From Eledone cirrhosa (Eukaryota), in the NCBI GenBank assembly GCA_964016885.1, contig OZ024741.1, positions 151,714,001 through 151,778,000 on the forward strand: a stretch of DNA of 64,000 nt, written 5' to 3'. The notes below the pieces were generated by a model. It was not told where the DNA came from. It was given only the letters and a program-made list of their open reading frames with translations, and did no database searches. Shown in pieces: positions 29,328-29,565 of the stretch. Position 1 is the first letter of the stretch; every line of letters starts with the position of its first letter. Position numbers and translations under genes: made by a program.

Positions 29328-29565
29328 AGAATAGAAATGGCTGTGTAGTTGCTATTTAAGGTAACTTAAAATGCAGTGGGAATACGGAGAAAGCAAGAGG
29401 GGGGGGGGGGAGTTTTCCTCATCAGTTGTCTAGTGGAGGTCTCGGATATTTCTACGCTTTAAAGACAATATATCTCGCCCCAGGGCGTCAATAACTGGAT
29501 AAGTTATTGGGGAAACGAGGGAGGCAGGAAAGGAAAGCAAATGGGAAGAAAAGAGAAAACAGTAA
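29328..29565 (-). mobile_element. Short non-coding insertion in TA tract carrying a permuted HHR-like motif
   Basis: TA-flanked; shares only the ribozyme-like motif with 50060-50694. Confidence 0.55.
29411..29478 (-). ncRNA. Candidate pseudoknotted hammerhead-like motif, copy 1
   Basis: GAUAU-A-UUGUCU-UUAAAGCGUA-GAAAUAUC-13nt-AGACAA-CUGAUGA; stems I and III pair, stem II not evident. Confidence 0.55.

Follow-up and report, generated by a model that had tools for sequence, protein, structure and literature searches.

The window analysed here (the whole stretch of 64 kb) is animal DNA rich in microsatellites, with LINE and Penelope-like (PLE) ORFs. Its four PLE ORF copies show typical inverted 5′ duplications, with 1062 aa in one open frame, and minimal type I hammerheads lie in PLE ends:

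47347–49988, minus strand: PLE ORF with RT and C-terminal GIY-YIG
51983–53749, minus strand: PLE ORF with RT and C-terminal GIY-YIG
56726–58762, minus strand: PLE ORF with RT and C-terminal GIY-YIG
58751–61939, plus strand: PLE ORF with RT and C-terminal GIY-YIG
5792, 37102, 37221, 44514, 44646, 47099, 51765, 54138, 54534, 56454 and 62210: minimal type I hammerheads in PLE ends (n = 11)

The PLE ORF at 59900–61936 has its best match in an Octopus vulgaris protein (69% identity), nearly all others being at or below 56%, which makes an octopod host probable. By inspection of their sequences, each of the 11 type I hammerheads has a single additional base behind A9; an insertion is thus tolerated at this point, and a larger one would be plausible. 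None of these 11, and no hammerhead family at all, is present among the 150 of 198 Rfam matches listed for the whole window at E up to 1. Other repeats include a SINE-like dispersed family of ∼160 nt in seven copies (6632–6794, 17945–18094, 20304–20470, 28494–28644, 32097–32281, 32946–33081 and 33646–33802) and long near-perfect inverted repeats, MITE-like or inverted PLE ends, at 16576–16689, 38324–38676, 39944–42469 and 62955–63686. LINE ORFs are broken (1582–4934 on the plus strand, 7179–10476 on the minus strand, 14667–15968 and 24596–26031 on the plus strand); among them are an inverted pair with 74% identity, whose second member has an APE endonuclease domain, and two further RT-like fragments, one of which matches Pfam RT and PHD-finger.

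Two short inserts within (TA)n arrays stand apart from these elements. The first, insert A, lies on the minus strand:

29328–29565, minus strand: insert A, 238 nt, without ORF, T/C-rich, a (TA)n array on each side
29412–29516, minus strand: ribozyme A as predicted over its full 105 nt, with six helices; of the 33 pairs in the model, 31 form
29511–29516, minus strand: 5′ strand of closing helix P1 (partner 29412–29418, directly after A9); 6 bp with one bulge, one double change relative to B
29489–29509, minus strand: hairpin P2, CAAUAACU/AGUUAUUG, 8 bp, two double changes relative to B; the L036 equivalent has 11 bp
29485–29488, minus strand: stem II 10.x strand, from the 5′ end of the motif (partner 29454–29457)
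29478–29483, minus strand: strand of the covarying helix, with double changes relative to B in 5/5 shared pairs
29439–29477, minus strand: kink-turn (k-turn), with the G-A strand at 29475–29477, the 3-nt bulge and G-A at 29439–29444, and 3b.3n = C.C
29469–29474, minus strand: block S, the stem III 16.x strand and H17
29462–29468, minus strand: stem I 1.x strand (partner 29426–29432), 6/7 pairs in A and 7/7 in B
29445–29452, minus strand: block G, with G12-A13-A14, A15.1 and the stem III 15.x strand
29419–29425, minus strand: C3–A9 core CUGAUGA, with a C-run downstream

The second, insert B, is on the plus strand:

50059–50696, plus strand: insert B, ∼640 nt, without ORF, between (TA)n arrays; unit ∼610 nt
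50577–50683, plus strand: whole predicted ribozyme B, 107 nt, 33/33 model pairs formed
50060–50087, plus strand: direct repeat, a copy of the 3′ end of B (50670–50697), 26/28 identical, resembling a partial tandem or a PLE tail

Cleavage of A is predicted after A29469, in an AUA triplet, the site being assigned from the analogous position in the hammerhead core, and that of B after A50625. Ribozyme B has GAAA at 50642–50645, CUGAUGA at 50669–50675 and U.G at the 3b.3n position of its k-turn; its hairpin CAACG/CGUUG (50583–50604) stands in the same place as P2 of A. Insert A has no protein matches with E < 0.8, and target-site duplications are not discernible within the TA arrays. Several smaller features of B may be recorded here. 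AATAAA occurs in its terminal repeat (50684–50696 and 50075–50087) on the strand opposite the ribozyme and is absent from A, which may be chance; an internal duplication of ∼104 nt (50263–50366 and 50393–50495) is 70% identical, and its second copy contains a 10-mer also found near PLE 3′ ends, again perhaps by chance. Immediately to the left of the TA array in front of B lies an inverted PLE tail (49973–49993) that matches by eye a PLE 3′ end at ∼62482–62503.

The first-pass annotation had described a TA-flanked minus-strand insertion of ∼240 nt with a second copy of its motif 21 kb away, and our data agree. The best partner of A in the window is 50618–50684 in B (blastn, 73.5% over 68 nt, E 1.4e–5, 21.2 kb away), the only non-self match below E 0.1 in a sensitive blastn search within the window. 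A core-only pattern with two mismatches allowed occurs at exactly these two places in the window and in none of 100 shuffles; no further copies were found there by pattern, and a covariance model returned two strong matches and two at E 9.8. The 65-nt cores align without gaps and share 42 bases, with identity at 19/36 paired versus 23/29 unpaired positions. Outside the motif, the flanks of A (49 nt upstream and 84 nt downstream), compared on both strands with the 518 nt upstream in B, cannot be aligned beyond chance: 146–481 of 500 shuffles score equally high. The similarity is therefore confined to the motif, as had been suspected, and the idea that the repeats might run on into PLE ORFs fails for both A and B within the window. 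Neither is similar to the PLE ends of the window, and a 44-nt match of 66% inside PLE ORFs (E 2.1) was taken as chance. The motif itself was put at ∼65 nt, while the shared part is actually ∼105 nt long. As to the flanks, said to differ, A does have the C-run downstream, but the upstream hairpin is shared, since B has the equivalent.

In both cores the blocks run in the order site, GAAA, CUGAUGA, a non-circular permutation in which all hammerhead core bases are present. A relaxed three-block search of the window, in any order, gave SGC for both cores, along with three weaker rows at unrelated places. Parses as type I, II or III (CGS, GSC or SCG with nested stems) were rejected, as only the SGC order was obtained for either core. 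U16.1-A17 falls between stems III and I, GAAA opens stem III and CUGAUGA closes stem I. This register holds across A, B and L036, a third example described below: in all three, C3-U4-G5-A6-N7-G8-A9 directly follows stem I, and G12-A13-A14 together with the A15.1-U16.1 pair opens a 5-bp stem III. The NUH triplet between stems III and I reads AUA in A and B and GUA in L036. The helices common to the cores of A and B are stem I, stem III and a five-pair helix with double changes throughout. An unbiased enumeration of stems of at least 5 bp that can form in both sequences yields four, the three model helices and a competing hairpin that shows no covariation. The seven double changes of the core were matched in 0/20,000 column shuffles under either of two schemes (search-aware null), and five double changes in one stem appeared in 6/20,000 under the stricter one.

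Stem II is formed in an unusual way. It has 4 bp with covariation (ACGC/GCGU in A, UCGC/GCGA in B), and the partner strand of the bases before G12 lies ∼60 nt 5′ of C3. The strand that follows A9 pairs upstream, as P1, and not with the strand before G12; a stem II drawn from the strand after A9 was rejected by the block-order search and by eye. In both inserts hairpin P2 sits just 5′ of the stem II 10.x strand and the P1 strand 5′ of P2. The set of stem II, P2 and P1, which was defined after seeing the sequences, arose in 2/20,000 flank shuffles for A and 0/20,000 for B. Over the full model of 33 pairs, A and B differ by 11 double changes and 1 single change, 19 pairs being unchanged and 2 mismatched in A. 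These double changes, together with the unrelated flanks, support the earlier suggestion that retention of the motif alone reflects selection on RNA structure, and we regard the predicted fold as, practically beyond doubt, a conserved structure. In hammerheads, whose core numbering we follow in its standard form, the 10.1–11.1 pair beside G12 is usually G10.1-C11.1. In A and B position 11.1 is an A and this pair is absent: a G.A mismatch stands there in A (with its G shared with P2) and U-A in B, while L036 has G-C.

L036 came from a scan of 596 Gb of prokaryotic assemblies with a pattern of 18 fixed letters and no stem information, which returned 43 loci. It lies on CAMQSH010000302.1, a 2,666-nt contig labelled uncultured Brevinema bin, which may be bacterial or misbinned eukaryotic DNA. 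At this locus 22 of the 23 pairs form, from stem letters unlike those of A and B, against 12 or fewer at the other 42 loci (P ∼2e–7 after correction). The locus also has an 11-bp P2 and a 3-bp P1; a P2-like hairpin alone is present in 9/42 control loci. In the alignment of A, B and L036, 94% of cells are paired and 16/23 pairs show double changes, with 0/500 shuffles as high and slid-register controls paired at 35–48%. A covariance model built from two sequences, with two helices only, ranked L036 fourth of eight (14.2 bits) and did not single it out. Just upstream of the motif, at ∼235–265 on the minus strand, L036 has a near-perfect complement of the stem I strand and CUGAUGA that is paired in the MFE fold; an off-switch or a PLE-like inverted piece are possible readings of it.

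With only two copies in the window, A and B might be thought ordinary diverged copies of one repeat in which the structure arose by chance, the very case that was named at the outset as fatal to the proposal. Paired positions diverge more than unpaired ones yet their pairs are kept, and similarity is limited to the motif, so uniform divergence along one repeat is excluded. Since, moreover, the flanks are unrelated, the covariation beats every shuffle and L036 was found blind, we consider this explanation scarcely conceivable.

The five-pair helix, helix I′, corresponds to the interaction helix by which stems I and II are linked in SGC and CSG ribozymes. It continues into stem III through a 3-nt bulge and tandem G.A pairs, which is the layout of a kink-turn. 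All three sequences have it complete, with C helix, 3-nt bulge, tandem G.A and A.G, and NC helix; the G.A/A.G positions are invariant in them, but the scan pattern fixed these letters and the flanking helices of L036 are the only independent part. The identity of 3b.3n sets a rule for ion-driven folding of k-turns in Mg2+ alone (PMC4382518), and this rule predicts such folding for the modelled turns of A (C.C) and B (U.G), not for that of L036 (C-G). How stem III might reach the helix between stems I and II was left open by Eckert et al. (PMC10085705), and a k-turn would be a concrete answer. One could also see in it the heart of a non-catalytic structured RNA, a k-turn or box C/D-like protein-binding element whose hammerhead letters are incidental. 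The k-turn strands of B do resemble box C′/D′, and Rfam places a C/D snoRNA over the 3′ portion of motif B (E 6.6, far below the cut-off). Such a reading fits poorly with the placing of UH, GAAA and CUGAUGA precisely where stems I and III end in 3/3 computed examples, and with the Naiad PLEs considered below, in which by eye the coral, ostracod-region and other records of the available consensus file keep the core and have a bend without a k-turn (PMC8557442). We judge it very improbable. That other Naiads bend in a different manner also means that the k-turn is one solution among several.

By every sequence test applied here the structure is hammerhead-like, and it is neither one of types I–III nor a plain SGC form. 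The family is very probably a cleaving hammerhead. Rfam at E up to 10 returned no matches for region A, two for B and nine for L036, all weak and none of them a ribozyme, and by blastn the B motif was unmatched in phages and the A motif in plasmids. Nearest-neighbour folding fails to recover the model: z is 0.44 for A, and the nested parts of the model are less stable than the MFE folds, although the folding program cannot form pseudoknots. Whether these particular copies still act is another matter. A and B may have decayed within a real ribozyme family and no longer cleave, given that G10.1-C11.1 is lost, that A has terminal mismatches and an expanded C-run, and that the competing 5-bp hairpin, present in both, could cover the cleavage site. 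On the other side, every core base is intact in A and B, B forms all of its pairs, and its U-A at 10.1–11.1 looks compensated. Decay seems to us possible though doubtful, and on these sequences we lean towards both copies being active.

The closest described relatives are the type-SGC and type-CSG hammerheads (PMC10085705). Type-SGC (HRIMA-1) shares with A and B the S-G-C order, the short linker between stems I and II, a helix that connects these stems at their far ends, and the same core bases. It differs in that CUGAnGA there runs directly into stem II, with no more than 1–2 inserted bases assumed, while A and B are opened at this point and have two helices inserted. Type-CSG shares the connection from stem II through helix I′ to stem III (16.x) and the non-circular class; it is open between block G and block C, whereas A and B close that link through the k-turn. 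Members of the SGC and CSG classes with the same I–II helix cleave in vitro (PMC10085705). According to the available text, type-SGC is known from metatranscriptomes and from no genome of a known organism, and for type-CSG two metagenomic sequences alone are reported; the word ‘kink’ is absent from the available part of its supplement. Two things in our model would go beyond the published forms: an opening of the backbone immediately behind A9, filled by two additional helices, and a kink-turn that joins stem III to the helix tying stems I and II. The label ‘permuted hammerhead-like’ of the first-pass annotation was thus well chosen, the permutation being a non-circular one of the SGC/CSG/GCS class with a new opening point.

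Other hammerheads are more distant. The type I hammerheads found in PLE pseudo-LTRs and in animal retrozymes resemble A and B in the same core and in their 3′-terminal position in a TA-targeting retroelement; they differ in that their three-way junction is nested and a circular permutation of order C-G-S, stem II being a hairpin and stem III tiny. An animal (non-LTR) retrozyme consists of tandem units, each with a type I hammerhead (bioRxiv 10.64898/2026.07.22.740005), while A and B are single units with a ribozyme that is not type I. In the pistol-like pseudoknot hammerhead of Zhan et al. 2024 (PMC11300833) a pseudoknot makes up helix II and helix I is reached through an A-rich strand, and by analogy the UAAA linker of A and B might match this strand. 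Its pseudoknot comes from one stem-loop, and the available text describes neither a k-turn nor a split block C. For hammerheads with additional helices PMC13725137 cites its reference 13, and none with an extra helix was found in the available text of Forgia 2023 (PMC10162972). A literature search over titles and the openings of abstracts, with subscription papers mostly outside its scope, gave no account of this architecture or of a Naiad ribozyme and met the term ‘type-SGC’ in one paper only.

It is to the Naiad PLEs that the two inserts point. Naiads often target (TA)n and lack canonical hammerheads (Craig et al. 2021, PMC8557442). An HHR_half_core was flagged in 8/54 of them, Octopus and Euprymna included, with the other half 35–50 nt away; like A and B it is a CUGAnGA in the 3′ UTR with a distant second half, on either side, in elements with (TA)n targets, and no structure is proposed for it in the available text (PMC8557442). 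We parsed by eye the available Naiad consensus file (PMC8557442 supplement) around CUGAUGA, CUGACGA and CUGAAGA (CUGAGGA and line-broken words excluded), taking record names from the header that follows each record and from the order of the metadata sheet. The 19 CUGAUGA places comprise nine with the six-helix order, two plain CSG and eight without fit or unclear. CUGACGA gave CSG at three of its 16 places, the rest being without fit or unparsed, and CUGAAGA an SGC order without clear stem II at one of 18 (a record in part 16), the rest without fit. Altogether 38/53 places have no fit or were unparsed, many inside ORFs. The six-helix records are Naiad_Bfor, three near-identical Acropora records, two in parts 12 and 19, Naiad_Obim, Naiad_Ovul and Naiad_Esco; Naiad_Bfor has a 2-bp stem I and no visible P1, and Naiad_Esco is degenerate. 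Both Octopus records (Naiad_Obim and Naiad_Ovul) contain a k-turn, and the other Naiads a bulge or an asymmetric loop. Nematode Naiad 3′ ends are by eye textbook type-CSG at five places in parts 13–16 of the supplement.

The evidence that ties A and B to Naiads consists of the shared architecture, the target and the T/C-rich sense strand alone. TA arrays flank both inserts as at Naiad ends and B has the 28-nt terminal repeat, features common to other PLE clades. A single Naiad-type ORF (N-terminal GIY-YIG, C-terminal RT) is absent from A and B, and a scan of the window for Naiad RT/GIY-YIG motifs returned none, only the canonical PLE ORFs and one stray GxPMG match at 25064. Six-frame comparison of A, B and L036 with 120 PLE homologues gave two matches (E 0.8–0.9), taken as chance. 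Judging from these sequence features, A and B are likely to be Naiad-derived, and the structure is a strong candidate for the missing Naiad ribozyme. Somewhat more confidently, we take each insert for a short retro-insertion into (TA)n that carries a non-circularly permuted hammerhead and that is either a 3′ piece of a PLE (likely a Naiad) or a PLE derivative lacking the ORF.

The same hammerhead variant could instead belong to independent retrozyme-like families, trans-mobilised by the canonical C-terminal-endonuclease PLEs of the window and no part of Naiads. The four PLE ORF copies are at hand for this, as are the 11 type I hammerheads that adjoin TA arrays; the 610-nt ORF-less unit of B, with its 28-nt terminal repeat and intact site, fits a circular or tandem template, and cephalopod Naiads are long-inactive remnants according to Craig et al. 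(PMC8557442). Against these points stand the same rare architecture at the 3′ ends of Octopus and Euprymna Naiads (by eye, in the available consensus file), the likeness to A of stem I and the linker of Naiad_Esco, and the dissimilarity of A and B to the PLE ends of the window. We hold independent families to be unlikely.

With a Naiad-related origin preferred, a mechanism can be outlined. The strand would run from P1a through P2, stem II (10.x), helix I′, the k-turn, stem III (16.x) and the cleavage site to stem I (1.x), and then through a short linker, stem II (11.x), GAAA, stem III (15.x), the k-turn bulge, helix I′, stem I (2.x) and CUGAUGA to P1b. Stems I, II and III would build an ordinary hammerhead core, helix I′ would tie their far ends in place of the loop I–loop II contact, and the k-turn would fold stem III back so that the cage closes. 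Because the three inter-block links of SGC, CSG and GCS are all present, the chain would be opened between A9 and 10.1, and P1 and P2 would form a further small junction at that place. Self-cleavage after H17 would trim tandem or read-through transcripts of the element and thereby serve transposition; such trimming is the role hypothesised for type I hammerheads of other PLEs (PMC8557442). The intact site of B, in a unit with a short terminal repeat, suggests an uncleaved tandem or a circle as its template, or else a jump of the RT to a second RNA end. The caged form might derive from CSG if the new unit starts at stem II in one tandem copy and ends with CUGAUGA in the following copy. On balance we favour, with some reserve, the broader view that Naiads carry non-circular hammerheads, CSG in nematodes and the caged form from ctenophores and corals to cephalopods, and that CSG gave rise to the caged form through circular permutation in PLE partial tandems.

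The 105-nt transcript of A makes the proposal directly testable, and as the present Rfam models do not detect the motif at all, many of its copies could lack annotation. The finding would place non-circularly permuted hammerheads in animal chromosomes and add a seventh arrangement, one that does not obey the three-block assumption. It calls into question the view that Naiads do well without hammerheads, from which it has been suggested that such ribozymes may merely parasitise PLEs (PMC8557442). If our reading is true, the hammerheads that Naiads carry would all be of the non-circular class, in elements that rank with the most abundant retrotransposons in many genomes of invertebrates; cephalopod Naiads would bend stem III with a k-turn, and the others with bulges or loops. 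Non-circular permutation of RNA would in that case be a common and ancient feature of animals, encoded in their DNA, and the two inserts would represent a new kind of retrozyme that makes use of it.
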